A stretch of 64,000 nt of DNA from an uncultured Nitrososphaerota archaeon. GTDB lineage: Archaea; Thermoproteota; Nitrososphaeria; Nitrososphaerales; Nitrosopumilaceae. Below are positions 7,052-46,109 of this stretch, one piece after another (the stretch's first letter is position 1; each line of letters opens with the position of its first letter). A model generated the notes under the pieces. That model did not search any database. It was not told where the DNA came from and saw only the letters and a program-made list of their open reading frames with translations. The stretch is taken from the NCBI GenBank assembly GCA_963824385.1, contig CAWGPD010000004.1, forward strand, positions 320,001-384,000, in the 5' to 3' direction. The position numbers were made by a program, and so were the translations under genes.

Positions 7052-9517
7052 CTATTTCACTTGCCTTTTCCTTCTCCTAAGAATTACATACAATACCATT
7101 AGAAATACAGCACTTGCAAATATTACAATTCCTGCAAGATATGCATAATTTACTCCTAGAGACTCGTTATTAGAGATAAAATTTTCCTGGGCTAGTTGAT
7201 TTGCCCCTTGTGTTACAAGAAAACTTGTATGATACATATCAGGTTTGTATGCATCATCTGATACTACAAATATCTGAAAGTCATTTGAGCCTAATTCAAA
7301 ATTCTTTGTCTTTTCAGGACCAAGGGTTATTGTCATGTTTCCATCTGCAGATTTTTTCTTCCCATTATCGACTATCTTTCCTTCAGGGTTTGTAAAATAG
7401 TAATATACAGTAGCATTTGGTGTGACTGAAATTGGTATTGTAAGATTTGTACCTAGGATTATGTCAGTTGGTACTTCAACATTTTGTATTGTAGGTATGC
7501 TAATATCTTCAAATTTTTCCCAGTATCCAGATTTGAAAGGATATGTGGGATCATCAAATGCTTTAATCGTGATCTTTCTTGCATCAGGAGAATAACTATC
7601 CAAATAGTATGGTCCATTACTTATTACAGCATGTCCATGTTCAGCAATCCAAGATATCGAAGCATTGTATCTTGAATTAAAATAATTTGAATCGTTAACA
7701 TATGAAAGTGCGGGTGGAATAGAACTCTCTTTTTCAAAGTCTTCAAGGTTTGTTTTTATCACATTGGCATCATTTGGAATAATTAGTGACATCCAGTCTA
7801 CATCTTTGCTCATTGCGTCTGATTCTGAAAATGCAAGCTTGCCATCAGTAACTGCTTTTTCCATAGCGTAACCAATCTCCCATGGCATTGCAGGCCAGAC
7901 TTGGGCAGAGTCTGCAATTTCATTATCATCAAAATGCCAATAGTTTTGATAAACCTCAATAGTATCTGCATCAACAACCCTAACTCCTATGAGCATCTTT
8001 GCAGCCTGATTTGCCTTGGGAGAATATTCTGAATCAAATGTCATGGTTCCATTTGTCTGATCTGTACCCCATTGATATAGAAAATAAATTCCATAAAGAA
8101 CATCGTTCATATCCATTGGAATTTTGTTGTGCCAATTTCCAAATTTTAGGTGAAACGTTACTTTGCTTGTTGCCTTAACTCCAGTTCCCACCTGAACCCA
8201 CTTTTGTTTTAAAGCATCCCAGTATATTGCGTCACTTGGAACATCAAGTTTGTTCAAAGGTCCAGCAGTCTTGACTTGCCAATCAGACCTTACTGGTATG
8301 GTATATCCAGTGTAAGGATTTTTGAAGTCTCCAGGGTCAGATATGGTTCCCCAAATTTGCTGGCTGGAAGAATCTGTAAATCCACCGATTGGATTCCATG
8401 CACCAGAGTAGATATTTTTTACACCTATTGTCAGTGTGTCAGAATCGGATCTTGCATTAATTGGAGTAAACCTACTTGTAATTCCTGCACCAAAATCATT
8501 TATTATTCCATCGACTTTTTTGTTTGCGACAAATTGGTCTATCTTGCATGCAAGAAATATTCTAACAGAATCATGAATTCCCCGATCAACTGCCTGGTTT
8601 ATCAAACTGGAGCGTTGATCTGAAGATGTAAAATTTCCAAAGAATATCGCCTTGGATAGAGAATCAATCTCAGGGTCTTGGAAATTCCAATATGAGGGAT
8701 TGTTAAATCCAGGCATGTTAGAGTACCACGGAGAATACATTTGGGCAGTATTTACGGAATCATATCTTACAAAACCACTCATTGTCCATCCTTCTGTGTA
8801 AATACTCCATTTCATATCAGATGGATTGGAACCATAAACATCAGAGAATGCTTTTGTCAGATCACCATAATCTTTTTTCACCACAAATCCTACATCGTGT
8901 AATTGAGAAGCAAGAATTTCGCCAATAGATCTTCGTATAGGATCATCACTTCGAATAAAGATTGTAACAGATATCGGTTTTGAATTATAGTACCAAGTTC
9001 CTCCAGTCTTTTGTGCACCTGCCTTTTCAAGTGCACTTGATATGATTTGATTTGCAAGCGCGGGATTATGTTTAAAATTAAATGACTGTAATTCTCCCAG
9101 TATTGAGAGATAATCAGGATCATATGGTTTGTATGCAGAAATCATTTGAACGCCATAACCATTTAGAACTTCATCTACGATAAGATCCCTATCTATTAGA
9201 TAATTTAGTGCAAATCTTACTTGTTGGATTGAAAATGGATTGAATTGCTCAGAGACTGCGGGATTTATCAAAAGACTATAACTTGTTCCAGCAGACTGGA
9301 ATACCTTCAAATTTTGCCTTGATTGATCATCAAGTAGATCCAACGGTATTGCAGAATAATAAATATCCAAGTGTCCATTTTCTATTTCTTGTACAGCAGT
9401 GTTATCATCAGAGTACTGGATAAATTCAACTTTGTTAAAATTTGTACCTTTATCACCAAATGCAACTACAGGGCCCAAAATAAAAATCGCTAGAAGAATG
9501 AATAATAAAAATTTCAT
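7052..9517 (-). CDS. Peptide ABC transporter substrate-binding protein (family 5) with C-terminal TM anchor
   Basis: Signal peptide; NPFSIQQVRFALNYLIDRDLI; SNGPYYL; C-terminal TM + RRRKR. Confidence 0.9.
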   Translation of the reverse strand: MKFLLFILLAIFILGPVVAFGDKGTNFNKVEFIQYSDDNTAVQEIENGHLDIYYSAIPLDLLDDQSRQNLKVFQSAGTSYSLLINPAVSEQFNPFSIQQVRFALNYLIDRDLIVDEVLNGYGVQMISAYKPYDPDYLSILGELQSFNFKHNPALANQIISSALEKAGAQKTGGTWYYNSKPISVTIFIRSDDPIRRSIGEILASQLHDVGFVVKKDYGDLTKAFSDVYGSNPSDMKWSIYTEGWTMSGFVRYDSVNTAQMYSPWYSNMPGFNNPSYWNFQDPEIDSLSKAIFFGNFTSSDQRSSLINQAVDRGIHDSVRIFLACKIDQFVANKKVDGIINDFGAGITSRFTPINARSDSDTLTIGVKNIYSGAWNPIGGFTDSSSQQIWGTISDPGDFKNPYTGYTIPVRSDWQVKTAGPLNKLDVPSDAIYWDALKQKWVQVGTGVKATSKVTFHLKFGNWHNKIPMDMNDVLYGIYFLYQWGTDQTNGTMTFDSEYSPKANQAAKMLIGVRVVDADTIEVYQNYWHFDDNEIADSAQVWPAMPWEIGYAMEKAVTDGKLAFSESDAMSKDVDWMSLIIPNDANVIKTNLEDFEKESSIPPALSYVNDSNYFNSRYNASISWIAEHGHAVISNGPYYLDSYSPDARKITIKAFDDPTYPFKSGYWEKFEDISIPTIQNVEVPTDIILGTNLTIPISVTPNATVYYYFTNPEGKIVDNGKKKSADGNMTITLGPEKTKNFELGSNDFQIFVVSDDAYKPDMYHTSFLVTQGANQLAQENFISNNESLGVNYAYLAGIVIFASAVFLMVLYVILRRRKRQVK

Positions 9518-9661
9518 GATATGTTTTTCAATGAACTGTATTTAACCGTGGTCCAACAAGTAAATTATCATAATATAAAAAACTAGTACAAGAATTACGA
9601 TGACGTGGTGTCACACAATAACACAAATAGTATTTTATAAAAGAAAACTAATTGGTTCATA

Positions 9662-10282
9662 ATGAATCTTCAAATGCTAGTAAAAGGAATTCAAGGAATA
9701 ATCCCAGGAGGGCTTTCTGTCAAAGATTTTAGCATGGCAACTCAGACTAGCGAATATGTAGCAAACGAGATACTTGACAATTTTATGCAAAATGGAATAG
9801 GAAGATATGAGGAGGAACAAATCCATTTTGAAGAAAGTGACAGGCTAAAGACGTGTATTCTTGCAATTAACATGGGTGCGGCAATTGAGGAGGTCTCACG
9901 CTTGTTAAAATGGCAGGATTTTGAATCGCTTGCAGCAGAAATTCTTGAAAAGCAAGATTTTGAGACTACAAAAAATGTCATATTAACAAAACCCAGGATG
10001 CAGATAGATGTGATAGGCATCAAGTCAGATGTTGCCATACTTGTTGACTGTAAACATTGGAAAAATATGTCCCACTCGGCACTTCAGACTGCCGTAAAAA
10101 AACAAATTGAGAGAACAAAGCAATATCTGACTAAAGAAGATATCAGGGCTGCAGTTCCTGCAATTGTAACCCTTTACCAACACGACCTACAATTCATTGA
10201 TGGAGTACCAATTATCCCAGTCCATCAGTTAGATTCATTTTGTGATGAGTTTTACGGGAATCTAGAAAAACTTCAAAGTTAG
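9662..10282 (+). CDS. Mrr-like PD-(D/E)XK restriction-endonuclease-fold protein
   Basis: WQDFESLAAEIL ... QIDVIG ... LVDCKHW. Confidence 0.8.
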   Translation: MNLQMLVKGIQGIIPGGLSVKDFSMATQTSEYVANEILDNFMQNGIGRYEEEQIHFEESDRLKTCILAINMGAAIEEVSRLLKWQDFESLAAEILEKQDFETTKNVILTKPRMQIDVIGIKSDVAILVDCKHWKNMSHSALQTAVKKQIERTKQYLTKEDIRAAVPAIVTLYQHDLQFIDGVPIIPVHQLDSFCDEFYGNLEKLQS

Positions 10283-12019
10283 AGCATCGTATAGATAAAA
10301 AATCCAGTAGTTATCAAAAGAAACGCTTGTGTTATTCGCATTGCATTATCAAGGGATTTTGAATAAAGCTCGAAGCTGGTTACCTCCCATAACTTTGACA
10401 CTGGTCTCACTTTCTAGGAGGTCGTAAGATGTAGGAGAAGCAGTCTGTTCTGCTTTTTTGGCAAGATCTAAAAACCATGATACAACATCAGGTGCTTTGG
10501 ATAGACTTCCAAATTCAAAATAACCGTGTTTATTTCTAGGCGTTCTTGCTTTATAGTGCGTATCAGATGTGCATATTTCAAGAAAATTATATCCATTATT
10601 TAAGAAACTATTTGCAATTTCTTCACGCAGTCCATTTAACATATTATTTGCATCGGCCCATGCAAGAAAGAACTTTTCATCACCAATCTTAAAACACATT
10701 ATTGCAACCTTGCCAGGTCCAAGATCATCTGCATCAAAATTTAGATGCTCAGAGTTTGCATATCCAACCTCTAATGGCAACGTCTCTTTTGTGATGAGTG
10801 TATCCAAAGTAGATTTTGCAGCAATTAGAAGATCATCTGCATCAAGTTTTTCAATTTCTTTTCCCATTGCATTATGACTATCAACAATCAGTACTCTTTC
10901 AAATCCTCTGTTTTTACCATATTGCTCAAGATCTGATTTTATGTAAAATGGAATATCTTCCATCCCGTGGGGAGACAATGAAAGAATCAAGACTGCTGTT
11001 TTATCAAATAACAATCCAGTAGTTCTGGCTTTATTTACTTGAATTGTGACTGGCTTTGTGCTTTTTGAACCTTCTTGGATTTTCAGATTTTGTTGGAGGC
11101 TTGTGATATAATGATCAACTTGAGATTTAGAAGGTAAGTTAAGCGAATGGTCAGAAATGCTATGCATTACCATCGCAGAAGAATTGAGATTTTTATATAT
11201 AAGATACGGTATATTGCTTCCACCTATTGGATGAAACGGTCCAGGATGAAGGTCTGGAATTACCAGTCTACAATCTCCGTCTTTTTTCTTGAATAGAATT
11301 TGAAATGTGGAGACCTTTGATGGTTCTGAGCGTTTCTCCATCAACAATTCCATTGGTTTAGGATCATTATTTGTCCATGCTGCAAGATATGCTTGCAAGA
11401 ATGCGTGAGTACTAGATAATTTTCCACTACCTGCAATTCTATCACTTAACAAAGTCCAGAGACTTCCAAGAACACAAAAAACTATACCATATGCAATAGA
11501 CCTGGGATCAGACAGCATTGGAATCCATTGATTAGTAGGTACAAATGCAAGGAACATTGCAAGAGGTTGGATTAATGAAATTGCCCACGCTGTCTTTAGT
11601 TTTGCTCCCAGTACTGATGTAAATATCGCAATTCTAAAACTAGTAAACAAAAACATTCCTTCAATTACATAAATTTGTAATAACTGTGGTTTAGAAAATA
11701 CGTAAAAAGACAATATTCCACATAGAAGAGTTACAAGCCACAAAAGATTTCCAAATGCAGACATGTGTATGGATTTAGAATATTCAGTTTTCAAAATTTT
11801 AGTATCTATTATCTGAGTTATCATAAGTGCGGCAACAGTAACAGGTATGGCATAGACTAGCCTGTCAGATGATTTGAAATAATCAATGCTTGATACTGCC
11901 ACAATAACACATGCGGCAACAATGGCGATTACTAGCGATACATAGTGTGAAGTTGGAGTAAATGTTGTTAACGTATACCGTTTATGAATGCGGGATACAT
12001 CGTTGGAGCTTTCCGTCAT
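10279..12019 (-). CDS. DUF2070-family membrane protein; frameshift near 10372
   Basis: N-terminal multi-TM region; PDLHPGPFHPIGGS, DSHN, TSDTH motifs. The alternative frame supplies a final TM helix LYSKSLDNAMRITQAFLLITTGFFIYTML* ending at 10279. Confidence 0.85.
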
Positions 12020-15602: not shown

Positions 15603-16802
15603 ATGCTAAAGTTTATTACTATCAGACAGAGAATTCACACCGTGACTAAGAGAGTTCTTTTAGCATCAACAATTTTGAGCTTACTAGTTTTTGGAACAGT
15701 TGCACCAATTTGGGCAACAGTTGACTTTAACGCATATCTTCCAATCGAAGGAACTCCAATCATACCAGAATTCAAATTTACCAAGAACGTTGAAATCGAC
15801 TATCCAAATGGTGGAAAACTAAAGGATGCACTTATGGGTAAAAATATGACAATATCATTTTCTGACAGTTCGGATAACAATACAAGTATCAAATCGTTTA
15901 TGGATGCAATAAATACAGAGTTTGCAACAGATAGAAAGTCTACTGCAACAATCTCTACTATGAAAGTACAATATCAGATCCAGATCAACGGTGATGACAA
16001 GGGTGCAACAATTGATTATTTGATAATATTAGATCCTACAATTAATGGATACACCTTGAACAAGGGAGGAGGCGACACACCCACAGTATTAGACATATCA
16101 TGGATGGGATTTGTCATGAAGGGTCCAGTAGTTATAACTACCCAACAATATGGTGACTTGGATATCAATTCTCCAATAGGTGTAATACAGAAAGAATTAC
16201 CAGATGTATACAACATATTGAATGGAACTGCAGCAGAGACTCCCTTGAGTGTCAATTTGATAGATGCAAGCCCACTTGTTGGATATACGATTGATAAATG
16301 GAATACCCTTTTTGATCCAGCATATACTCTCACTGAAACTGCAGGGTATGGATATGCAGGACAGAAAGTCGCAGTAACATCATTTGCGTATGGACAAAGT
16401 GATTTATACCAAGGTTCATTAAAAACCCAAAATGTTGATACTGATTTTACAGCAGATGCAACATATCATTTAACAGTAATTGACAGAGCAAGTTCAGGTA
16501 CAATAGATGCAGCAGGACATGCAAACGGATACATGGTACAAGACACTCCAGCAATTTCCACATTAGCCCAAGTGTCCACAGGATCATCAGTTCAAACAGC
16601 CCAAGGCCTATCAACTACTACAATATATGCAATGGCAGGATTTGCAGTAATAATCGCAATAGGAGTTTTCTGGTTTAGCAATCAAAAAATGAAAGCAGCG
16701 ATGAAAAGAGGTGTAGACACTAGTCCGCCTCCAACATTCCAGTATGAAGAAAGAAAACACTGGGTAGACAAGTTTGATGAAGAAAAGAAAAAGAAGGAAT
16801 AA
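15603..16802 (+). CDS. Secreted, C-terminally membrane-anchored hypothetical protein (start may be GTG at 15642)
   Basis: Signal peptide-like N-terminus, Thr/Asp-rich body, C-terminal TM and charged tail. Confidence 0.8.
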   Translation: MLKFITIRQRIHTVTKRVLLASTILSLLVFGTVAPIWATVDFNAYLPIEGTPIIPEFKFTKNVEIDYPNGGKLKDALMGKNMTISFSDSSDNNTSIKSFMDAINTEFATDRKSTATISTMKVQYQIQINGDDKGATIDYLIILDPTINGYTLNKGGGDTPTVLDISWMGFVMKGPVVITTQQYGDLDINSPIGVIQKELPDVYNILNGTAAETPLSVNLIDASPLVGYTIDKWNTLFDPAYTLTETAGYGYAGQKVAVTSFAYGQSDLYQGSLKTQNVDTDFTADATYHLTVIDRASSGTIDAAGHANGYMVQDTPAISTLAQVSTGSSVQTAQGLSTTTIYAMAGFAVIIAIGVFWFSNQKMKAAMKRGVDTSPPPTFQYEERKHWVDKFDEEKKKKE

Positions 16803-24086: not shown

Positions 24087-24380
24087 TTTAATCTAGGACT
24101 AGGATATTTCAATAAATAGATATGCCAGAACTCAGAGTCACTGAATTGGCATTCATCTTGTGTCATGTCTCTAACTCTTCTTCATCGCCTGGCTATCATA
24201 ATCAGTTAAGGTCAGATAATAACTAATGGTATTTTATTCAAATTGCAAAATCTATAGCCACAAGGAGTTTATAGCGAGTCTTACCGGATTCAAATTTTTA
24301 GTAAACCCAAATTTATGAAGATCTGAATTTGTTTTCCTTTATTCGAGTATTTTAATACAGATTGGATTTCATAGATTTGC

Positions 24381-25139
24381 ATGCATCTGGAAAAACTTGC
24401 TCATAGTTTCACAATTGGTGGTACTGTAATTGCAGTTTTACTAGTCATCATTGCACTAGTTGAAGTGTATCATTTTGGCGAGCTTGTTGGCGAGCAACAA
24501 AAGACAACGGCAAGTTTGACTTTACTTCTCAACAAGACGGATAATTTGCTAGCAGAGATGCAAAAGTCCACATCAGGTTTGGATACATTGGTCAACAGAA
24601 CTGATCAATTAATACAACTACAAACTAGTACATCCTCTAACATTTCACAGCAAACCATAATGAAAGAATACAGCGATCAGGTTCCATTTCAAGTCGGTAT
24701 TGCATATTGTAATTATGAAGAAAATGATAACGATATTGCATATTCTACAATTATTTTAGATAAAAACGGAGACCCTACAACACTGAAATTTATGCTGGAT
24801 GTTCTTTTTAGGTTCTATACTCTTCCAACTGATAATGGAACTCTAGCAATTGGAGAAACTCAAAGTTTAGGGAATGATTCAAACCCTGAATTAGTTGAAC
24901 CTGCTGAAGAAAAATTGCAAAAATTACCACTGGCAAACATAATGAACCAAACCCAAAATACTACTGACACATATCTGTTCGTACGATCACAGTATGATTT
25001 TGCTCCATATTCTGAAGCGACTAGTAATTTGATTACTAAATATGCCCATGATAAAAGTGGTCAGCAAATGATTGAATTTAAGAAAAACAATAGTGGAGAC
25101 TGGGAACTATATCCAAGTCAAAACTCGATTTGTAAATAG
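24381..25139 (+). CDS. Hypothetical membrane-anchored protein (TM + coiled coil + extracellular domain)
   Basis: 252-aa ORF with N-terminal TM and a short internal repeat (LLNKTDNLL / LVNRTDQLI). Confidence 0.7.
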   Translation: MHLEKLAHSFTIGGTVIAVLLVIIALVEVYHFGELVGEQQKTTASLTLLLNKTDNLLAEMQKSTSGLDTLVNRTDQLIQLQTSTSSNISQQTIMKEYSDQVPFQVGIAYCNYEENDNDIAYSTIILDKNGDPTTLKFMLDVLFRFYTLPTDNGTLAIGETQSLGNDSNPELVEPAEEKLQKLPLANIMNQTQNTTDTYLFVRSQYDFAPYSEATSNLITKYAHDKSGQQMIEFKKNNSGDWELYPSQNSICK

Positions 25140-25308
25140 ATTATTTTTTAGATCATACTTGTAATGGTTCAAAATTTCAGCACTAGTGCAAAATCTACAG
25201 CGCTTTTTTTAAATAATATTTCTGTAGTTATCTGGTAAACACAGGGCTTGTTTTATGACCCTATACTAGTTGCAGTAATTTTTTATATTCAATTAGATAC
25301 AAGCGAAC

Positions 25309-25755
25309 ATGCCGACCAACACTGTCAACTTACATCGTGTAATTGCCACAAATCCAGAAAAAATATATCGTGCATTTCTGAATCCTGATGCCTTGGCTAG
25401 GTGGATTCCCCCAAATGGATTTACTGGAAAAGTTCATCATATGGATGCAAAAGTAGGTGGTACATTCAAAATGTCGTTTACTAACTTTACAACTGAAAAA
25501 AGTCATTCCTTTGGTGGAGAATTCCGTGAGTTGGTTCAAAATGAACGTTTGAGATATACTGAAAGTTTTGATGATCCTAACCTGCCCGGAGAAATTCAGG
25601 TAACTGTAACACTGAAGAAGGTTTCTGTGGGAACAGAGTTGACAATCGTACAAGAAGGCATACCTTCTGTAATTCCTCTTGAAGCCTGTTATCTTGGATG
25701 GCAGCAGTCACTTGCTAATCTAGCTAGACTAGTTGAACCAGAGATTCCAAATTGA
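25309..25755 (+). CDS. SRPBCC (CalC/Aha1-like) family protein
   Basis: LHRVIATNPEKIYRAFLNPDALARW.PP.GF; CYLGWQQSL. Confidence 0.9.
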   Translation: MPTNTVNLHRVIATNPEKIYRAFLNPDALARWIPPNGFTGKVHHMDAKVGGTFKMSFTNFTTEKSHSFGGEFRELVQNERLRYTESFDDPNLPGEIQVTVTLKKVSVGTELTIVQEGIPSVIPLEACYLGWQQSLANLARLVEPEIPN

Positions 25756-25824
25756 AAATATTTGGAATTATTCTAGAAAAAAAGTGCAAAATCCTAGTGT
25801 CTAACTATATCCCCAAAATAAAAG

Positions 25825-25898
25825 TGGGATCGGCCGGATTTGAACCGACGACCTCAGGTACCCAAAACCCGAATCATACCAAGCTAGACCACGATCCC
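25825..25898 (-). tRNA. tRNA-Pro (anticodon TGG), intronless, CCA not encoded
   Basis: GGGATCG acceptor pairs with CGATCCC-A; D arm GTCTAGCTTGGTATGAT; anticodon arm CGGGT-TTTGGGT-ACCTG; T loop GGTTCAAATCC. Confidence 0.96.
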
Positions 25899-26875: not shown

Positions 26876-26975
26876 CGCTACATTAACAGTCTCTTTTTTT
26901 ATACGAGTTCATCTCTATTTTCTGTTTCAACATATGGGGCAATTGCTTTGTGTCAGCAATTCCAGGATTGATAAA

Positions 26976-27989
26976 TCATCTATATTCATCCCCGCAGTCA
27001 CCAATAGAAGAAAACAAATCATTTGATCTTGAGGTTACTGATCTTATCTGTTCTTTGTCTTCTCTATCTAAATTTAATGAAAACACTCTAGCGTTGTCTG
27101 ACTTGTGCTCTGCTATGCCAAGTCTTACACCAATTATCACACCTGCAACAACGGGCTTGTCCAAGACATATTTTGCAGCAACATTTGCAATACTAACATG
27201 GTGCTTTTTTGCTATATGGTATAGTACCGCAAGTAGCTCTTGAAATAGAGTCCATCCACCCCAAACATCAATCATGTTCTTGTATTTCTGTAAACTTGAT
27301 GTATATAGCTCGGACCTTGTTGGCTCTGGTTTTTCTCGATAATTTTCAGACAAGAATCCTCCGAGAAGAGTTCCATAAGCCAGTAGTTTGATGTCATGTT
27401 TTTGGCAAAATGGAGCCATCCTGACTTCAGGTCTAGAGTCTATGATAGAATATTGTACTTGATTTGATACTAGTTTGAATCCATTTTCTACCATAATCTC
27501 TATTCTTTCCGTATCAAAATTTGTCAGTCCAACATGTCGTATCTTTTTATCATCTTGAAGCTTGAAGAGATGATGTAATGCGTCAAGGTAGTTTGTATCG
27601 TTATAATCCCACCAGTGAAACTGGACCAGATCGATTGCTTTTACATTCATTCTTCTAATGGACTTGTCAATGTAATGCTCTACAATTGATCTAGTCATCG
27701 GACCTGGATTTGGGACAAATTTTGTTAGAGCCTGTATTTTGTCTAGTTCTTCTTTACCCTTTTTCTTTTCAATTCTTCTTCGAAATTCACCGATGTATTC
27801 TTCGGCAGGTCCATAAATGTCTGCCATGTCCCATGTAGTAAAACCAGAATCATGGTATGAAAGCATCTCAGAAATTGCAGATTCTGGGTCAATTTTACCA
27901 TGGCCTCCCGCTACCTGCCACATACCGTTCAGGATTTTGCAGATTTGCAAGTCAGATGTTAACTGGTAGGTTTTTTGTGATTGTGACAT
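26976..27989 (-). CDS. Aldo/keto reductase
   Basis: GMWQ, D.ADIYG, TKF, IDLVQFHW, NQVQYS, LAYGTL.GG motifs. Confidence 0.92.
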   Translation of the reverse strand: MSQSQKTYQLTSDLQICKILNGMWQVAGGHGKIDPESAISEMLSYHDSGFTTWDMADIYGPAEEYIGEFRRRIEKKKGKEELDKIQALTKFVPNPGPMTRSIVEHYIDKSIRRMNVKAIDLVQFHWWDYNDTNYLDALHHLFKLQDDKKIRHVGLTNFDTERIEIMVENGFKLVSNQVQYSIIDSRPEVRMAPFCQKHDIKLLAYGTLLGGFLSENYREKPEPTRSELYTSSLQKYKNMIDVWGGWTLFQELLAVLYHIAKKHHVSIANVAAKYVLDKPVVAGVIIGVRLGIAEHKSDNARVFSLNLDREDKEQIRSVTSRSNDLFSSIGDCGDEYR

Positions 27990-28075
27990 GCTTGTGATTT
28001 TCTGAAAAACTTGCCTTATTTCTCTTTTGATGCTTTTTTAGAATTAGTACATTTTATCATTATGATTTACTTCCA

Positions 28076-39896: not shown

Positions 39897-40075
39897 GTAA
39901 AAAGTTAGTTTGTCTAGAATAAAAATAGATTGAATTTGTCCAAAAGGGTTAGAAATGTTGATTGCATTTCAGACTTATTTCCCATTTTAGTTTAAATCTA
40001 GTATTAAAACACCCCTATTTTGATTTACGAATAAAAATTCATGAATATAGACTAATCATAGGTGAGGATATGAAA

Positions 40076-40260
40076 TTACTTCCTTTTCATTGATTGTTTT
40101 TCAATTCGTATTTTCTCTAAAAAAACTGAAGAAGATTCATCTTTAGGATCCTTGGTAACCAATTCTCCAGCAAATGCTTTTGTAAGAATGGATCTTTGAA
40201 TTTCATTACTACTTCGTAAACCTAATTCCGCTGACTGATGTATATCATGTGATAAAGAAA
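40076..40260 (-). pseudogene. hsdS: Remnant of a type I restriction-modification specificity subunit (C-terminal conserved helix only)
   Basis: QRSILTKAFAGELVTKDPKDESSSVFLEKIRIEK matches the typical HsdS tail SIL.KAF.GELV.QDP.DEPAS.LLE.I; no TRD domains, hsdM or hsdR nearby. Confidence 0.7.
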
Positions 40261-40443
40261 GAGTTAAAAAAATTAGGCGATAAACTGAGAGATAAATTAG
40301 AAGATGAAGCAATTGATGGTTTTATTAAATTTGCAATGAGGATAGGTTCAGACGCTTTAATTTATTATGTACATTTGACTCCTCATTAGACAGCATTATC
40401 CGAGAAATACAATTTGAATATTTGGACTATAGTGCTATGAATT

Positions 40444-42792
40444 TCAACGTCTGATTTTTGGAATAAAAACAATAGAGAATGTTGCAATTACCAAGATGAT
40501 TGTAGCAAACGAAAATTCAGGAACCGTTGGAGCCATTATTTGTGACATATTCATTATAGTTATAGTATGAGTTGAAAAGTGTGGAACTAGAACCAGAACC
40601 TGTACTCCGCTTTGTGTAACTACTATGGCAAAACTTGGACTATCTGTTGGTTTTGCATGCAATATGGCATCCATGTTTGATGCTGGCGGTATTAGTTTTC
40701 CATCATACATTACACCAAGTTGATTTAGATTTGCCACATTGACTGTTGTAGTATTAAGATTAAACGCAATCACTTTGGGACCTGTCTGACTTGGAGCACT
40801 AACATTCACATTTAGTGAATCAGGTGTATTACTGGTTGTTTGAACTGTAACATTACTGTCAATAGATGTAGTTGTGGATTGGCTTGCACCAACATTTACT
40901 TCAGCCGCTATTGTTTGACTTGCCTTTGCTTGATTGATACTTTGAATGTCTTGTTGAGTTGGGGTAAATACAGAGGTTGGTTGTGGATTTGTTGGCTGAA
41001 CAATCTGGGTGTTTGTTGGTGGAATAACTGCGGTATTTGTTTGTGGATTAATTATTTGATTTGTTGCATCAGAAATTACAGCAATGCCATTAGGAACTGT
41101 CACAAACACTTCTCCCTTGGTAGAGTCATATGCAATATCCATAGGAAACAATCCAACTGGCACTGTTGCAATAACTGTATTTGTTTTATCACTGATGACT
41201 GAGATAGTATTTGCAAATGAATTTGCTACAAATATCTCTCCCTTACCAGAGTCATATGCGACGGCATTAGGTTGTCCTCCAAGTGGAATTGTTGAAACAA
41301 CAGTATTAGTTACATCATTGATTACTGAGACAGTACCAGTACCTATGCTGTTTGTACTTGTCACAAATATCTCTCCCTTACCAGAGTCATATGCGACGGC
41401 ATTAGGTTGTCCTCCAAGTGGAATTGTTGAAACAACAGTATTAGTTACATCATTGATTACTGAGACAGTACCAGTACCTATGCTGTTTGTACTTGTCACA
41501 AATATCTCTCCCTTACCAGAGTCATATGCGACGGCATTAGGTTGTCCTCCAAGTGGAATTGTTGAAACAACAGTATTAGTTACATCATTGATTACTGAGA
41601 CAGTACCAGTACCTATGCTGTTTGTACTTGTCACAAATATCTCTCCCTTACCAGAGTCATATGCGACATAAGCAGAGGATCCAAGTGGAATTGTTGAAAC
41701 AACAGTATTAGTTGCATCGTTGATTACAGAAACTGACCTGTTGCCATTACCATTACCACCATTTGCTACAAATATCTCTCCCTTGACAGAGTCATATGCA
41801 ATGCCCATAGGCTCATCTCCAACTTGAATCGTTTGTGCAAATTTATTTACTAGAAGTGATGGTGTAACAGGGGGTTCTGATGGTGAAACAGTTGGCGGTG
41901 ATGACTGTTGTGGATTTGGTTGTGGTGATGGTGACTGAGGAGTAGGTTGAGTAGGTGGTGATTGAACTCTCGAACCTACTATCACTTGACCTGTCATCCA
42001 TGGATGGACAGTGCAAAAGTAATTGAATGTTCCTGCATTTGCAAAAGTAAATTGGTATGTACCCTGTGGCTTGATTAAATTACCACTGTCAAAAATAGTT
42101 CCAGTTGTAGCATCAGTTGATTTGCCACTTGACACATAATGACTTATGGTATCAGTATTTTTCCAAGTTACTGTTGTTCCCGGTGGAATATTCAGTGGAT
42201 TAGGAGTAAAGCAGTTGTTTACTGCAACACAAGGTGCAGATGCACTAGAACCTGCACCTGGTGTCATATCAATTTCATTTGCTGCTTGAGGTATTGGAAT
42301 TGGTAGAGGTTGTTGATTTGGTGGAGGATTTGAAATGTTTCCAGAAAGACCTGTAAATTGGAAGGTTGTCTGGGCTGTGTTACAAGTACCAATCTGTACT
42401 AACACTGTATATGTGCCTGAAAGTTGCCATTGTGAAGTATTAGTCCCAAATACAATGTTTGATAATTGTTGTGTTTGAATTACCCCCATAACACCTCCTA
42501 CTGGATTTGTTATTTCAAGCACCGCACTAAGTTGACCAGGAGTGTAAGATGACGGTAATTCATGTATTGTAATATCTATTCCACCACCATAATTGTATGA
42601 GGGCTGGTCAGTTGTTAACGGTGATTCCACCTGGAATAGGTGTACAATTTGCACCTGTTGGATTCTGAGTATCATATGGATTGTTATCTGCAAAAGATGG
42701 AATTGTATTCCTCCAATAATAACCAGAGATACTATTGACACAAAAGCGACAACTAGTAATATTCTCGAATAACTCAGGCCTTCGCTTACCAT
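40444..42792 (-). CDS. Surface protein: Ig-like domain + cupredoxin (type 1 Cu) + YVTN beta-propeller + PEF-CTERM anchor
   Basis: Signal/TM N-terminus; FTPNPL..PPGTTVTW.N.D..SH...YFCTVHPWMTG; six AYDS.KGE.FV blades; VPEF + TM + KIRR. Confidence 0.88.
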   Translation of the reverse strand: MVSEGLSYSRILLVVAFVSIVSLVIIGGIQFHLLQITIHMILRIQQVQIVHLFQVESPLTTDQPSYNYGGGIDITIHELPSSYTPGQLSAVLEITNPVGGVMGVIQTQQLSNIVFGTNTSQWQLSGTYTVLVQIGTCNTAQTTFQFTGLSGNISNPPPNQQPLPIPIPQAANEIDMTPGAGSSASAPCVAVNNCFTPNPLNIPPGTTVTWKNTDTISHYVSSGKSTDATTGTIFDSGNLIKPQGTYQFTFANAGTFNYFCTVHPWMTGQVIVGSRVQSPPTQPTPQSPSPQPNPQQSSPPTVSPSEPPVTPSLLVNKFAQTIQVGDEPMGIAYDSVKGEIFVANGGNGNGNRSVSVINDATNTVVSTIPLGSSAYVAYDSGKGEIFVTSTNSIGTGTVSVINDVTNTVVSTIPLGGQPNAVAYDSGKGEIFVTSTNSIGTGTVSVINDVTNTVVSTIPLGGQPNAVAYDSGKGEIFVTSTNSIGTGTVSVINDVTNTVVSTIPLGGQPNAVAYDSGKGEIFVANSFANTISVISDKTNTVIATVPVGLFPMDIAYDSTKGEVFVTVPNGIAVISDATNQIINPQTNTAVIPPTNTQIVQPTNPQPTSVFTPTQQDIQSINQAKASQTIAAEVNVGASQSTTTSIDSNVTVQTTSNTPDSLNVNVSAPSQTGPKVIAFNLNTTTVNVANLNQLGVMYDGKLIPPASNMDAILHAKPTDSPSFAIVVTQSGVQVLVLVPHFSTHTITIMNMSQIMAPTVPEFSFATIILVIATFSIVFIPKIRR
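41228..41667. repeat. Perfect intragenic tandem repeat, 135-bp unit x ~3.3
   Basis: gtcatatgcgac recurs at 41251, 41386, 41521 and 41656; each unit encodes one 45-aa YVTN blade. Confidence 0.95.
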
Positions 42793-42831
42793 TATATAGT
42801 AATAAACCATATCATGTTTTTCAAAGTATGC

Positions 42832-43053
42832 CTATTCAAGGATTAATTCTCCCACATCAAAGCAATTCTTGCACACCCAATGAAAATCTGGACTTGGTCT
42901 AGAACTACTTGCAAGTTTCACCTCATTCTTGTCAATTCCTCGTATAATCTCATTTATTCTGTTAGACCTTAGAAATATTACTACGATATTATCAGATTTA
43001 CAAGAAGGACAGCAAATCTTGCCTTTTGTCCAGTATGTGATATTTAGTTTCAT
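42832..43053 (-). CDS. Small zinc-finger protein
   Basis: CPSCKS ... WVCKNC. Confidence 0.65.
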   Translation of the reverse strand: MKLNITYWTKGKICCPSCKSDNIVVIFLRSNRINEIIRGIDKNEVKLASSSRPSPDFHWVCKNCFDVGELILE

Positions 43054-43054
43054 G

Positions 43055-43279
43055 CTATAAACTACTCAGGAAATTTCCAAGTTGAGTTTCTGCTGAATCT
43101 AGTATTGCAATACAAGGGCCACTTGTAATTACATACCTAATTGCATGAAAGGTTAACAGTATCAGAGTCTTACCAAAGAGAAGTGTTGTCTTGCTTGCTA
43201 CTTCAAGAATGGTAGTAAACGCAACTTCATGGGCATGTTTCTTTATTTTATCAGAGTTTTTATGATGAAAAATGCTCAT
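43055..43279 (-). CDS. Hypothetical protein
   Basis: 74-aa ORF coupled by ATGA overlap to the TPR gene and 1 bp from the next gene. Confidence 0.5.
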   Translation of the reverse strand: MSIFHHKNSDKIKKHAHEVAFTTILEVASKTTLLFGKTLILLTFHAIRYVITSGPCIAILDSAETQLGNFLSSL

Positions 43280-43753
43280 GAGTACATTTGCTCCTGTTTG
43301 CCTTGCAGATTGATTAGTTGATTCTTCCAGAGTAGTGCGTGTTGATCTTTTGGATTAATTTCTAATACTTTGTCATAGCATTGTATTGCAGACTCGTATT
43401 GTTCTAGTTTACAAAGACTAGATGCCTTCCCTAGAATTGAATGAGTATCTCCAGCCTCTACAGAAATTGCCTTGTCATAGAATACAATTGCATCAGTGTA
43501 TCTTCCAAGGTAATAGTATGCTTCTGCCTTGTAATACAATGCAGTAGAGTCTTGCGGATGTTTTTGTAGAACTTTATCAAGATATACAATTGCTTCAGGA
43601 TATGTTTCTATTCTAAGAAGAGCAAATCCCTTGTGTAATAATGCATCACGGTTGTCAGGCTCTACTCCAAGAATTTTATTATAACATTCTATTGCATTAT
43701 TATACTTGGCTTTCTTCTCAAAATCTTGACCTGTCGAAATATTGTACGGACAT
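43276..43753 (-). CDS. TPR-repeat protein (~158 aa); frameshift just after the start
   Basis: Frame is open upstream of the ORF-track start (KYNNAIECYNKILGVEPDNRDALLHKG..., YPEAIVYLDKVLQKHP); about four TPRs; ATG at 43753 is one base out of frame. Confidence 0.82.
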
Positions 43754-43945
43754 TAATCTTATTTTCAGTCAGTTCCGTAGAAGACAGGGTGTTTTTTGTA
43801 TTTTTCATACAATATATTGTATTCAATATTACTTAACTTTTACCGATATGTAATTCAGTTATACTTAATTTCTATGCGTAAAATAAATCTGTTTTAAATC
43901 CACATTCAACCAAACTTAATTAGCCTATGCACAAATCAAGAAATC

Positions 43946-44494
43946 ATGCTTCCAGAACTTGATTTAATTAAAAAAACACGGTCAAGGCTTGGCATGACAC
44001 AAAAAGAACTTGCAAGAAAAAGCAGTATCAGTCCCTCCATGCTAAATCAAATAGAGCGCAAGGGTGCGCAACCAAGCTACGCCACGGCAAAAAAAATATT
44101 TGAAGTACTGGAAACTGAGGAAAACAAGGTACGCCTAAAGGCAGGAGATATTTGCACGCGTAATATCATAACACTTTCACCAACAGCCACGGTAGGTGAT
44201 GCAGTAAAGTTGTTAAGTTCTAAAAAGATCAGCCAGATACCCATAATGAACAGAAATACTTGTGTGGGACTGATAACAAGTGACGATATAACATCCCAAC
44301 TGGGTAACAACTTGTTTGATATAAAGACTAAACTTGGCAAGATTGAAAGTTCCCAGCCGCCAGTCGTATCAATTGACAGCCCAGCCATCAGCCTTAGATC
44401 ACATCTGTCTTACTCTAAATGCATTCTTGTATCAGACAAGGGAAAGATAGTTGGAATTATTACATCGGAAGACTTTCACAAATTGATAGATTAA
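43946..44494 (+). CDS. XRE-type HTH transcriptional regulator with C-terminal CBS pair
   Basis: RSRLGMTQKELARKSSISPSMLNQIER..AQPSY; ISQIPIM, IVGIITSEDF. Confidence 0.92.
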   Translation: MLPELDLIKKTRSRLGMTQKELARKSSISPSMLNQIERKGAQPSYATAKKIFEVLETEENKVRLKAGDICTRNIITLSPTATVGDAVKLLSSKKISQIPIMNRNTCVGLITSDDITSQLGNNLFDIKTKLGKIESSQPPVVSIDSPAISLRSHLSYSKCILVSDKGKIVGIITSEDFHKLID

Positions 44495-44550
44495 AAATTA
44501 GCCCAGCGGTTCCACCGATTGGTCATGATATTTAATCTGGGCAGATTCAG

Positions 44551-45396
44551 TTACCGTATTTTTGAAGTTGTGAATTTGCACTCGTACTCTTGCTCAAAGA
44601 ATATCTTTGGTTTTTTTTTCTCTTCTAGGATAAACTCCTCAGACAGTATTTTGCCAACTGCAAGAGTATACGGCAATTCCATCTTGTGCATTTGTCCCTC
44701 ATTCCACAGGTCATAGAATATTCCGCGTTTGCCATTTGGCGTGCTTACGATTATCAAGTCCCCGTCTGTGTTTGCAATGTTTGGCCTTAATGCCCCATAG
44801 ACTGCGGCATCATCTTTTTTCCTGATAAAGGCAGCCTCGTCTAAAAATACGCAGATGACATGGTCCGGACCGCGTACTGCCTCTGCATCTGCAGGAAATA
44901 CTCGAATTGTAGTGCCGTTGAATAATTTCATGCTTGACTTTGTACTCTTTTTTATCAAATCCGAATATGAAAAATGCACCCCGTCAAGGTCAGTAAACCC
45001 GTTTTCAAACAATCTTGAAAACCTATCCAATGTAGCCTCTGCCTGCAACATCCTGTTTCCTGCAACTATCATTATATCGTATCCAGCATATCTGAAAAAA
45101 CAATTCATTGCAATGGAACGAAGTACGGTCTCTGTAACACCTATCTTTCTTGATTTATTGATTATTACCCTGCGTTTCTTGTTAATCGCTGCATCAATAT
45201 CAATCTGAAAAGGCAAGAGTTTGATAGTCTTTTTCTTGTCAGGTGAGACTGGCAGTCCTATCATTGTATTAAATTTTTCAAAATCTTTTGGAACATTCGG
45301 TACATGAACTGTTTTTTGAGTTTGCGGGTTCTCAAGATAAGTTGCTACTACTTTCTCAATGTATCTTGCAAGTGATTTTGTCATGTTACTTGCCAC
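44551..45396 (-). CDS. Terminase large subunit-like ATPase domain only (no nuclease domain)
   Basis: LLPFQ adenine-binding motif; Walker A VIINKSRKIGVTE; AVRG; Walker B VFLDEAAF; coupling motif IIVSTPNG..G.FY; FEQEYECKF, then stop. Confidence 0.85.
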   Translation of the reverse strand: MASNMTKSLARYIEKVVATYLENPQTQKTVHVPNVPKDFEKFNTMIGLPVSPDKKKTIKLLPFQIDIDAAINKKRRVIINKSRKIGVTETVLRSIAMNCFFRYAGYDIMIVAGNRMLQAEATLDRFSRLFENGFTDLDGVHFSYSDLIKKSTKSSMKLFNGTTIRVFPADAEAVRGPDHVICVFLDEAAFIRKKDDAAVYGALRPNIANTDGDLIIVSTPNGKRGIFYDLWNEGQMHKMELPYTLAVGKILSEEFILEEKKKPKIFFEQEYECKFTTSKIR

Positions 45397-45853
45397 TTCT
45401 CTTCCTCAAAGATTCTTCTACGCGTCGGTCTATTTCATCACTTGTTGCCATAACCAGAGCATATGGTACCTTTTTCTCTATTAGTTCCATAATTGTCTTG
45501 ATGCAGTACTGAATCGAACTTGTAAAAGTTTTTGGAATTGTTTTATGCTTGTCACGATATGCTTGTACCTCAGATTGTAACTCGGCAAGAATTTTGTATT
45601 CCTCAGAGAGTAGACTGTCAATGGCAAGGACTATGCTTTGTCTTTCTTGTCTCTCTCTTGCAAAGAAATCCTTGTTTTCAGATTCTGTAATATCCTGAGA
45701 CCATTTGTTAAAATAATTGCATACAGTTTTGATATTATGACCAGTCTTCTGTGCGGCAAAAGTTGCACTAAGGTTTTTCTCAAAATACGGTCGGAGTTTG
45801 TTTGCAATCTCAGCCTCAATCTTTTTTGGAGGTCTGCCTATAATCGCTGTCAT
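45386..45853 (-). CDS. Putative terminase small subunit-like HTH/coiled-coil protein
   Basis: GRP motif, HTH-like LSATFAAQKTGHNIKTVCNYF, helical C-terminus; overlaps the start of the TerL-like gene in canonical terS-terL order. Confidence 0.6.
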   Translation of the reverse strand: MTAIIGRPPKKIEAEIANKLRPYFEKNLSATFAAQKTGHNIKTVCNYFNKWSQDITESENKDFFARERQERQSIVLAIDSLLSEEYKILAELQSEVQAYRDKHKTIPKTFTSSIQYCIKTIMELIEKKVPYALVMATSDEIDRRVEESLRKRSGK

Positions 45854-46109
45854 ACATTATTTACACGCTTGTCACATAAAAAACTATTGAAAAATTACAA
45901 TTAAGAAATTCAATATACATTAATGTAATTAATCTACATTAAATTATAAACATGCAAGTATTTCTTTTTCCATTATCTTCCATTTATGACATTCGTGCTT
46001 TTTTCTAGGTCAAAAAAGTAATTCAACAGGTTCAAAAAAGACTATTACTAACTCAAAAAATCCACCCAGCTAGAATTAATAAGGTATAGTACGGTACCAA
46101 TACCGTAAC

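Follow-up and report, generated by a model that had tools for sequence, protein, structure and literature searches.

Terminase genes are treated as a hallmark of tailed viruses, and proviruses are called with their help. In the Staphylococcus aureus pathogenicity islands (SaPIs) and other phage-inducible chromosomal islands (PICIs) that carry a small terminase subunit (TerS), as in the capsid-forming PICIs with both TerS and a large subunit (TerL), an integrated element with few or no capsid genes redirects the packaging of its helper by means of its own terminase subunit(s). We know of PICI-type satellites only in bacteria. A packaging motor can also work without an active nuclease domain, as gp16 of phi29 does on unit-length, protein-primed genomes for which no cutting is needed. 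Among archaeal viruses, Ahlgren et al. and Lopez-Perez et al. are said to have reported, both in 2019, head-tail viruses of a kind related to the Nitrosopumilaceae. The closest described system is NitKor-E1, an integrated element of Ca. Nitrosopumilus koreensis AR1 whose only Caudovirales-like genes, in the available part of the paper, are a TerS gene immediately upstream of a TerL gene; there, Krupovic et al. (2019, Environ Microbiol; PMC6563490) call the function of this pair “enigmatic” and the pair itself “likely a relic”. Here we present a pair of this description from 64,000 nt of an uncultured Nitrososphaerota archaeon of the Nitrosopumilaceae (GCA_963824385.1, contig CAWGPD010000004.1, 320,001–384,000 of the forward strand), the whole of which is called the window below. 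A TerS-like gene (45386..45853) and an ATPase gene (44551..45396), overlapping on the minus strand, are present as an earlier reading of the bare sequence, here the original prediction, had described them. They very probably represent a TerS-like DNA-recognition subunit and the ATPase, or motor, half of a TerL that is naturally split in a lineage of head-tail viruses of the Nitrosopumilaceae, acquired horizontally on a 6.1-kb island without an integrase. Orphan TerS-TerL genes in ammonia oxidisers are already in print, as the original prediction had guessed, NitKor-E1 being the instance in the available part of that paper.

The ATPase is a protein of 281 aa when read from a GTG, and its gene then overlaps the upstream TerS-like gene by 11 nt; an alternative ATG at 45384, 1 nt past the upstream TAA, gives the 277-aa form that is used in the public cluster P0001. 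The protein is matched by Terminase_6N (PF03237, 33.7 bits against a cut-off of 22), by the phrog_2 “terminase large subunit” family (6.6e-21) and by the ATPase domain of T4 gp17 (8e-11). In an AlphaFold model with a predicted local distance difference test (pLDDT) score of 88.6, residues 31–279 superimpose on residues 106–360 of gp17 (Z 21.9, root-mean-square deviation 2.9, 234 residues aligned), and residues 36–281 on residues 4–258 of the ATPase-domain construct of Thermus phage P74-26 (Z 21.4, range 21.4–21.6). The chain therefore stops at the boundary between ATPase and nuclease, gp17 residue 360, which is the hinge at which the original prediction had placed its end. The packaging-ATPase motifs that it had listed are indeed kept: Walker A (KSRKIG), the Walker B/catalytic motif (LDEA), TPNG and the Q-E residues are invariant in an alignment of 30 sequences. 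The locus thus carries the N-terminal additional-strand catalytic-glutamate (ASCE) P-loop ATPase of a TerL, with Walker A, Walker B/catalytic Glu and coupling motif; the same polypeptide holds no C-terminal RNase H-like nuclease, and neither the open reading frames (ORFs) of the window nor the host genome place portal and major capsid genes alongside it.

The missing nuclease was looked for in several places. The ATPase stop lies only 56 nt short of the convergent gene downstream, which ends there, so a hidden domain cannot fit between them, and a frameshifted nuclease, which had already been argued against on the same ground, is ruled out. The host, a soil ammonia-oxidising archaeon, has a genome (G000) of 1.68 Mb in five contigs that is 86% complete, and this is the scope of every whole-genome negative given here. 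A genome-wide Pfam search found no match to the terminase nuclease (PF17289), the HK97-type capsid (PF05065), the portal (PF04860) or the tyrosine integrase (PF00589). Nor did other queries find a nuclease elsewhere in the genome: a viral nuclease protein gave a best E of 0.0145, in a 792-aa frame and not significant, and a profile of 19 stand-alone terminase nucleases reached a best E of 0.21. The absence of viral neighbours holds as well, since the window has 63 other ORFs with 100 aa or more and not one of them matches the head/packaging, tail, connector, lysis or integration categories of PHROGs at E<=1e-6.

The nuclease-less state had been read as a clean loss of a domain, and this view has to be given up: an ATPase-only gene is the normal state of a split TerL, the nuclease of which is a separate gene in related viral contigs. 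A word-indexed search of proteins of 154–492 aa returned 97 clusters at E<=1e-27, with identities of 35–100% and lengths of 159–358 aa throughout; one of them is annotated in Ca. Nitrosotenuis aquarius, and the window ATPase is 35–88% identical to the 96 clusters other than P0001, its own 277-aa form. An exhaustive search with no length limit gave 31 representatives at E<=1e-30, of which 29 are 120–399 aa long. Among the longer forms, the metagenomic P0112 (637 aa, 44% identity) has a LAGLIDADG-type insertion within the ATPase, probably an intein or homing endonuclease, and P0126 (522 aa, 35% identity) is a fusion of the ATPase with Terminase_6C, as P0136 and P0166 likewise are. In the 30-sequence alignment the proteins have a common end about 25 aa past a Q-E-Y-x-C-x-F-T motif. 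The closest homologues are all short, and the truncation is not unique to this genome.

Viral contigs of 34–52 kb from IMG/VR (L065–L077) show where the other half resides. They encode an ATPase of about 301 aa, 42–51% identical to that of the window, with a homologous GRP/helix-turn-helix (HTH) gene overlapping upstream, and, a few kb downstream, a separate nuclease ORF of 190–204 aa. Over the related viral contigs as a whole this RNase H-like nuclease has 190–216 aa, is adjacent or 1–6 kb off and lies beside a portal-candidate gene. In L065 the nuclease ORF (16009–16593) matches PF17289 over profile positions 1–152 of 155 (38.3 bits, cut-off 22.6) and directly precedes a 553-aa ORF, one of the ORFs of about 555 aa caught by a portal-candidate profile built in this analysis; the L065 ORF is the seed of that profile and has no portal match in Pfam or PHROG, and its 522-aa homologue in L073 has weak ones (PHROG E 0.0066; Pfam 17.5 bits, cut-off 39.1). 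A primase-MCM helicase and an exonuclease are encoded on the L065 contig as well. Profiles of the ATPase, its partner, the nuclease and the portal candidate were run on 111 fetched loci, which are not independent, as some contigs occur in two collections. The 103 complete ATPase ORFs have a median of 298 aa and a range of 193–445, the upper values being counted from the first start codon in the open frame. No fusion of ATPase and nuclease was found in the 111 loci, and a separate nuclease ORF on the same strand in 45, which at one extreme overlaps the ATPase ORF by 31 nt and at the other lies 6,098 nt beyond it; where at least 6.5 kb of downstream sequence is available (46 loci), the nuclease is present in 33 and absent from 13. 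The uniformly short family and the separate nuclease ORFs therefore show that TerL is naturally split in a head-tail virus lineage of the Nitrosopumilaceae and that the ATPase-only form is a family trait. The window protein has the traits by which we define this family (about 280–360 aa, an end at or shortly past Q-E-Y-x-C-x-F-T, no fusion), and it lacks the conserved C-terminal tail.

Split forms evidently exist in deposited phages too, as PHROGs holds short “terminase large subunit” families (phrog_7579, phrog_5713, phrog_5909). Among the deposited phages of INPHARED, 19 records match, all of them ordinary TerLs at no more than 31% identity, and none is a member of the family. Our literature search found no paper that describes the split, the primary papers on marine thaumarchaeal viruses lying outside its reach, and the available parts of PMC8651126 and PMC11849493 do not mention it. 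In genome G053 (L019, 11016–11037) two TGA codons in tandem close the ATPase frame, and 19 nt further on, in frame with it, comes a nuclease ORF of 142 aa. The two may have been separated recently, the arrangement may allow read-through, or the junction may have decayed.

The partner gene encodes 155 aa with an N-terminal GRPPK motif, an HTH and then long helices. Its AlphaFold2 model (pLDDT 87.4) is all-helical, the HTH being followed by helices of 39 and 25 residues, so that an N-terminal HTH and a helical region stand, as in a TerS, immediately upstream of and coupled to TerL. Pfam and PHROG give no significant match; the best hit of a profile search of the PDB is a transposase HTH (E 0.013), Foldseek against the PDB returns nothing at E<=1e-3, and the matches in BFVD are weak, to phage HTH proteins (E 0.037) and to “terminase small subunit” entries (E 0.24–0.58). 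“TerS-like” is therefore a label drawn from position, coupling and architecture; the HTH and helical architecture of the original prediction stands with the model, and the name itself finds no confirmation in Pfam, PHROG, the PDB or Foldseek. Homologues occupy the equivalent position in 40 of the 92 loci with at least 500 nt of upstream sequence, and the family alignment (A2) unites 29 copies from cells and viruses. In the A/T-rich region upstream of the gene (45905–45960) lies a perfect 12-nt palindrome, TACATTAATGTA. Its exact form is not kept in L160, a metagenomic locus in which the pair is 89% identical at the nucleotide level, and the palindrome may serve as an operator or be part of a promoter.

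The pair sits on a strain-specific insertion of 6.1 kb (39947..46029). In four of four congeners (G025, G024, G002, G009) position 39945 of the window is joined straight to 46030, so the segment between is an insertion. All sizeable DNA matches in the 40 congeners searched begin at window position 46013 or later, and the right flank (a winged HTH gene, purM and onward) is found in 39 of them at 71–91% identity. The ATPase family occurs in one of the 36 other genomes of the genus, G032, with 48% identity and at a different chromosomal site, three further matches in the genus being to frames of 376–511 aa with at most 32% identity. Genomes flagged as unpublished enter these tallies only (G011 and G034 in the family search; G011, G012, G019, G028 and G034 in the DNA search). 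A “domesticated” host module, as the original prediction had it, does not agree with this distribution, and the sequence comparison indicates that the pair was acquired horizontally with the island.

The island is bordered on the left by an imperfect direct-repeat copy, GTCCAAAAG (39938..39946, plus strand), and on the right by GTTCAAAAAAG (46030..46040, plus strand), immediately after which L160 departs from the window; the empty site of G025 holds a single GTCCAAAAAAG. No convincing long terminal or inverted repeats were found at the island ends. Soil metagenome contigs from two studies bridge both junctions, so the island is not an assembly artefact, and the doubt whether reassembly would bring other genes next to the pair is settled. 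The island itself differs from these contigs at 0–2 positions per contig, and the flanks by about 2–4%: about 1 kb on the left holds 42 differences as well as gaps, every one of them upstream of 39693, and 817 nt on the right hold 17 differences. A near-identical island between divergent flanks hints at its recent spread, with short flanks, between strains; chimeric contigs are possible. The soil metagenome reads gave no reported joints for excised or empty-site forms. A loose end of 19–22 nt in X3, at 46040/46052, resembles the empty site and is too short to use. Integration linked to a tRNA gene was considered and rejected, the sole tRNA of the window (Pro, 25824..25898) lying 14 kb off. The 44–45 kb bin has the highest GC content of the window (0.41), and as the bins at 17–18, 21–22 and 41–42 kb are similar this is not used as evidence. 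As a strain-specific chromosomal insertion with mobile-element content and without virion or conjugation genes, the island resembles the cryptic integrated elements of Krupovic et al. 2019; an integrase of its own (genome search) and recognisable att direct repeats (island borders) were not found.

Across the order, a search with the family profile matched 29 of 401 genomes at E<=1e-30, with short ATPase frames in families f1, f9, f14 and f18 and frames of about 500 aa in f15. Six genomes of the Nitrosopumilaceae that are 97–99% complete (G032, G397, G088, G065, G230 and G403) carry the ATPase and give no match to the nuclease profile anywhere, and in five of the six the TerS-like partner was detected. 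The profile performs as expected in G155, a positive control in which it finds the gene adjacent to the ATPase, beside an SNF2 helicase, a methylase and an EcoO109I-type restriction enzyme. Three f9 genomes (G085, G104, G136) have the nuclease about 14 kb off or on another contig, so they are not truly nuclease-less. The surroundings of the nuclease-less cassette include an OLD/GajA-like nuclease in G065, an HNH endonuclease and an LmuB-like ATPase in G088, NucC-like and Schlafen-type genes with an integrase-like ORF in G230, a type I restriction-modification (R-M) system in G397, a PDC-S35 TIR-like gene in G032 and a SoFic homologue in locus L163; in L022 the bare pair is flanked by housekeeping-type genes. 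Where ATPase and nuclease occur together, they are accompanied by a tyrosine integrase and type I R-M in the metagenomic locus L168, by DISARM DrmA/DrmB in another, L166, and, in the provirus-like G146, by a Mu-F-like protein and a weak, sub-threshold portal-like match. Judged by gene content, then, related cassettes recur in capsid-less, defence-rich islands, some of which have integrase or integrase-like genes.

Several of these loci have arrangements of their own. In G088 a 128-aa HNH endonuclease (PF01844; L272, 7256–7642) directly follows the nuclease-less ATPase in a genome where no separate terminase nuclease was found; some phage terminases have HNH proteins as partners, and this one may substitute for the absent nuclease. 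In G067 two copies of the ATPase flank three tandem nuclease-like ORFs (L280, 9294–14056). In G403, a genome without the nuclease, a segment of about 6.8 kb is duplicated, with a 345-aa ATPase in each copy (L281, 6532–14405). Genes for an ABC-ATPase/GNAT fusion and a ParB-N-domain protein stand directly upstream of the HTH/TerS-like gene and ATPase in five genomes of three families (L019 of G053, 7711–11465; L276 of G069; L277 of G085; L278 of G104; L279 of G136), and this block is syntenic, with the genes downstream of it, between two genera of family f9.

The ATPase gene is under purifying selection. By the pairwise Nei-Gojobori method and with L160 as reference, its omega is 0.19 (dN 0.058) at an unsaturated dS of 0.30, and that of the TerS-like gene 0.45 at a dS of 0.22, neither being the neutral value that the original prediction had named as a refutation. 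Between L163 and L022 omega is 0.34, and against deeper relatives of the window ATPase 0.06–0.25 with dS saturated. In a tree of 78 sequences, with the fused TerLs as outgroup, the window groups with L160, L161, L162, L164, L163 and L022; the partner gene is present in all seven and the nuclease in none, three of them having at least 5.7 kb of downstream sequence without it. The other nuclease-less cassettes (the L023 group, and L024 with L025) form separate clades beside viral copies.

The remaining genes of the island follow the pair at convergent or equal orientation. On the plus strand and convergent to it, 43946..44494 encodes a regulator of 182 aa with an XRE-type HTH and a CBS pair (PF01381, PF00571; HTH-CBS below), for which PADLOC returns generic HTH models only. 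A TPR-repeat gene follows on the minus strand (43276..43752), identified by Pfam matches, three-frame translation and its homologues in L161 and L162; it is annotated from a TTG at 43539, and its frame is open up to about 43752 without a start codon. Next come a 74-aa ORF (43055..43279, minus strand) with no match in Pfam or PADLOC and no homologue in the fetched loci, and a zinc-ribbon protein of 73 aa with CxxC...CxxC (42832..43053, minus strand), 50% identical to a 74-aa homologue in L162. The cargo of the island is a secreted-type protein of 788 aa (40444..42810, minus strand) with a cupredoxin domain (PF00127, 33.3 bits) and YNCE-like beta-propeller repeats (PF21783); its gene contains 135-nt tandem repeats (41084–41833), three of them 98–100% identical, which suggests a recent expansion of propeller blades. 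Some of these neighbours travel with the pair, so that its description as a two-gene module is too narrow. L161 (63% ATPase identity) has TerS-like gene, ATPase, a convergent HTH-CBS gene (70% identical, E 6.5e-90) and a TPR gene of at least 164 aa, and L162 (61% ATPase identity) has TerS-like gene, ATPase, a TPR gene of 121 aa and then the zinc ribbon (E 4.5e-25). Elsewhere in the window, two further segments are absent from the same four congeners (blastn) and may be small integrated elements: 24250–25814, which adjoins the tRNA-Pro gene and has ORFs at 24381–25139 and 25309–25755, and 26876–28072, with an ORF at 26976–27989 that matches phrog_8735, of unknown function (1.4e-35).

What might such a cassette do? 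We speculate that the pair is a packaging module, belonging to a mobile element that has no capsid of its own and relies on a helper virus, a reading that we place first and put forward tentatively, at something short of an even chance. The module would be silent or useless alone. Upon infection by a related split-terminase virus, the TerS-like protein would bind its own DNA, the ATPase would assemble on the viral portal, and the free-standing nuclease subunit and the capsids of the virus would be used in trans, so that DNA linked to the island would be packaged instead of, or alongside, the viral DNA. The logic would be that of phage satellites with their own terminase specificity, and the fission of TerL into two proteins would make an ATPase-only module sufficient. 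The window copy may be a decaying or non-autonomous example, given that the integrase and the C-terminal tail are missing and the TPR gene is damaged. A broader proposition extends this to the family: capsid-less islands of the Nitrosopumilaceae would pirate the capsids and the free nuclease of split-terminase viruses, enabled by TerL fission, as archaeal counterparts of satellites, the window island being one of them and possibly in decay. This wider claim we regard as unlikely, if worth stating.

A number of points weigh against the packaging role. No helper virus is known. No integrase, replication gene or recognisable excision function was found on the island (PF00589 genome search; PHROG scan), so it cannot act as an autonomous satellite, and its border repeat is 9–11 bp long, imperfect and A-rich. 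Stop codons occupy the place of the TPR N-terminus seen in L161. After the Q-E-Y-x-C-x-F-T motif the window ATPase has 5 aa, as does that of L161; an acidic/aromatic tail of about 25–48 aa is typical, and the other 101 of 103 complete ORFs have at least 12 aa or a motif that cannot be scored. The missing tail and the damaged TPR gene could be signs of decay. No profile or fold match confirms the TerS-like protein as a TerS. None of the seven sequences of the window clade comes with a nuclease or portal gene, their closest documented viral relative is at most 56% identical, and the clade has an SH-aLRT support of 86, below the 95 mark, in a quick IQ-TREE tree with SH-aLRT support only. The pairwise dN/dS values lump together periods spent in viruses, in elements and in cells, whose shares they do not reveal. 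The 15 sequencing runs that hold the locus include none of RNA, which is evidence neither way.

Several of these features would be expected of an inert relic, a split-terminase provirus or integrated element now mostly deleted, in which two genes are intact without function only as the event is recent. The missing integrase, the damaged TPR gene, which has lost its 5' end, and the absent tail all strengthen this account, as do the small and strain-specific nature of the 6.1-kb island and the patchy distribution across the order; in viruses the TerS-ATPase module lies up to 6 kb from the nuclease-portal module, so that one deletion can strand the pair. Krupovic et al. favour such an origin for NitKor-E1 in the available part of their paper (PMC6563490). 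The account is weakened by selection, by the recurrence of the pair without viral neighbours and by its conserved non-viral partners. Both ORFs are intact with every catalytic residue kept, and the omega values against L160 and the deeper relatives are low; the pair without flanking viral genes recurs in at least three clades and seven genomes, G000 included, with different flanks; the HTH-CBS, TPR and zinc-ribbon genes are conserved with it at about 60% ATPase identity; and the island is near-identical across soil populations. We therefore rank the relic after the packaging module and think it somewhat unlikely. The original prediction had named a decoy for defence as one example, which in the light of the split would mean that, when a split-terminase virus infects the cell, the TerS-like protein and the tail-less ATPase co-assemble or compete with its terminase and so block packaging. 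The defence neighbours of related cassettes speak for this idea (type I R-M in L023 and L168, DISARM DrmA/DrmB in L166, OLD/GajA-like in L273, LmuB-like in L272, SoFic in L163, NucC-like in L274, PDC-S35 TIR-like in G032), as does the absence of the nuclease half from all seven family genomes, and the loss of the tail in the window clade could make a poison subunit. Yet adjacency counts for little, as mobile elements and defence genes are found together in any case; the 5,027 models of PADLOC-DB v2 include none that matches the ATPase or the TerS-like protein at E<=1e-3, and PADLOC recognises no defence gene on the window island. A decoy has no obvious need for every catalytic residue of an ATPase, and most orphan copies keep the tail (L022, L023, L024, L162–L164). 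Interference, neither supported nor excluded by these data, comes third and seems to us decidedly improbable.

Last in rank is a DNA translocase or regulator repurposed to ends unrelated to virions, for example the transfer of the island or DNA processing with the TPR and zinc-ribbon proteins under the control of HTH-CBS. The association with these three partners in the window, L161 and L162, the purifying selection, and the HNH endonuclease of G088, an arrangement that suggests the module can combine with other partners, are all compatible with it. The association with TPR and zinc ribbon is, however, limited to three loci, the TPR gene is damaged in one of them, the window, and the bare pair of L022 stands among housekeeping-type genes; nor do we know of a precedent for a terminase ATPase that works without a portal. 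Such repurposing therefore strikes us as very improbable indeed, and the helper-dependent packaging module remains the reading that we prefer.

Viruses related to ammonia-oxidising archaea make their “large subunit” as two proteins. It follows that a gene for the ATPase alone is no defective TerL, and annotation pipelines will get it wrong. The stranded TerS-TerL pair that was “enigmatic” in one genome in 2019 becomes a recurrent, selected cassette: at least seven genomes of the family carry it, all without the nuclease half, and this recurrence turns the choice between satellite-like piracy, viral interference and relic into a testable question. As far as our searches reach, the split of TerL, the cassette in at least seven nuclease-less genomes and its extended form with HTH-CBS, TPR and zinc ribbon are new. 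If the satellite reading is true, this would be the first satellite-type element proposed for a globally important group of nitrifiers and a route by which cargo like the island's copper protein could spread horizontally; if the relic reading is true, the locus is ordinary.

Set beside the known systems, the island is most like NitKor-E1, which according to the available part of its description has TerS-TerL without capsid, portal or tail genes; the likeness is one of gene content as described, and NitKor-E1 has a tyrosine integrase, VapBC and a PD-(D/E)XK nuclease, none of which the window island has. PICI-like satellites have integrases, repressors and replication modules, and of these neither integrase nor replication genes were found in the island. 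The gp16 protein of phi29 shares with the cassette the nuclease-free packaging ATPase, and differs in belonging to another sequence family and in being always within a virus genome. The canonical TerLs of T4 (gp17), P74-26, HK97 and Sf6 have the same ASCE ATPase fold and motifs as the window protein; their RNase H-like nuclease is the C-terminal part of the same polypeptide, whereas in the window's family it is a separate gene or absent, and the window pair has no portal or capsid genes nearby. The IMG/VR contigs L065–L077 differ in carrying the stand-alone nuclease, portal-candidate ORFs, the primase-MCM helicase and other viral genes, and they share with the window an ATPase of about 300 aa and a TerS-like gene that overlaps it upstream.

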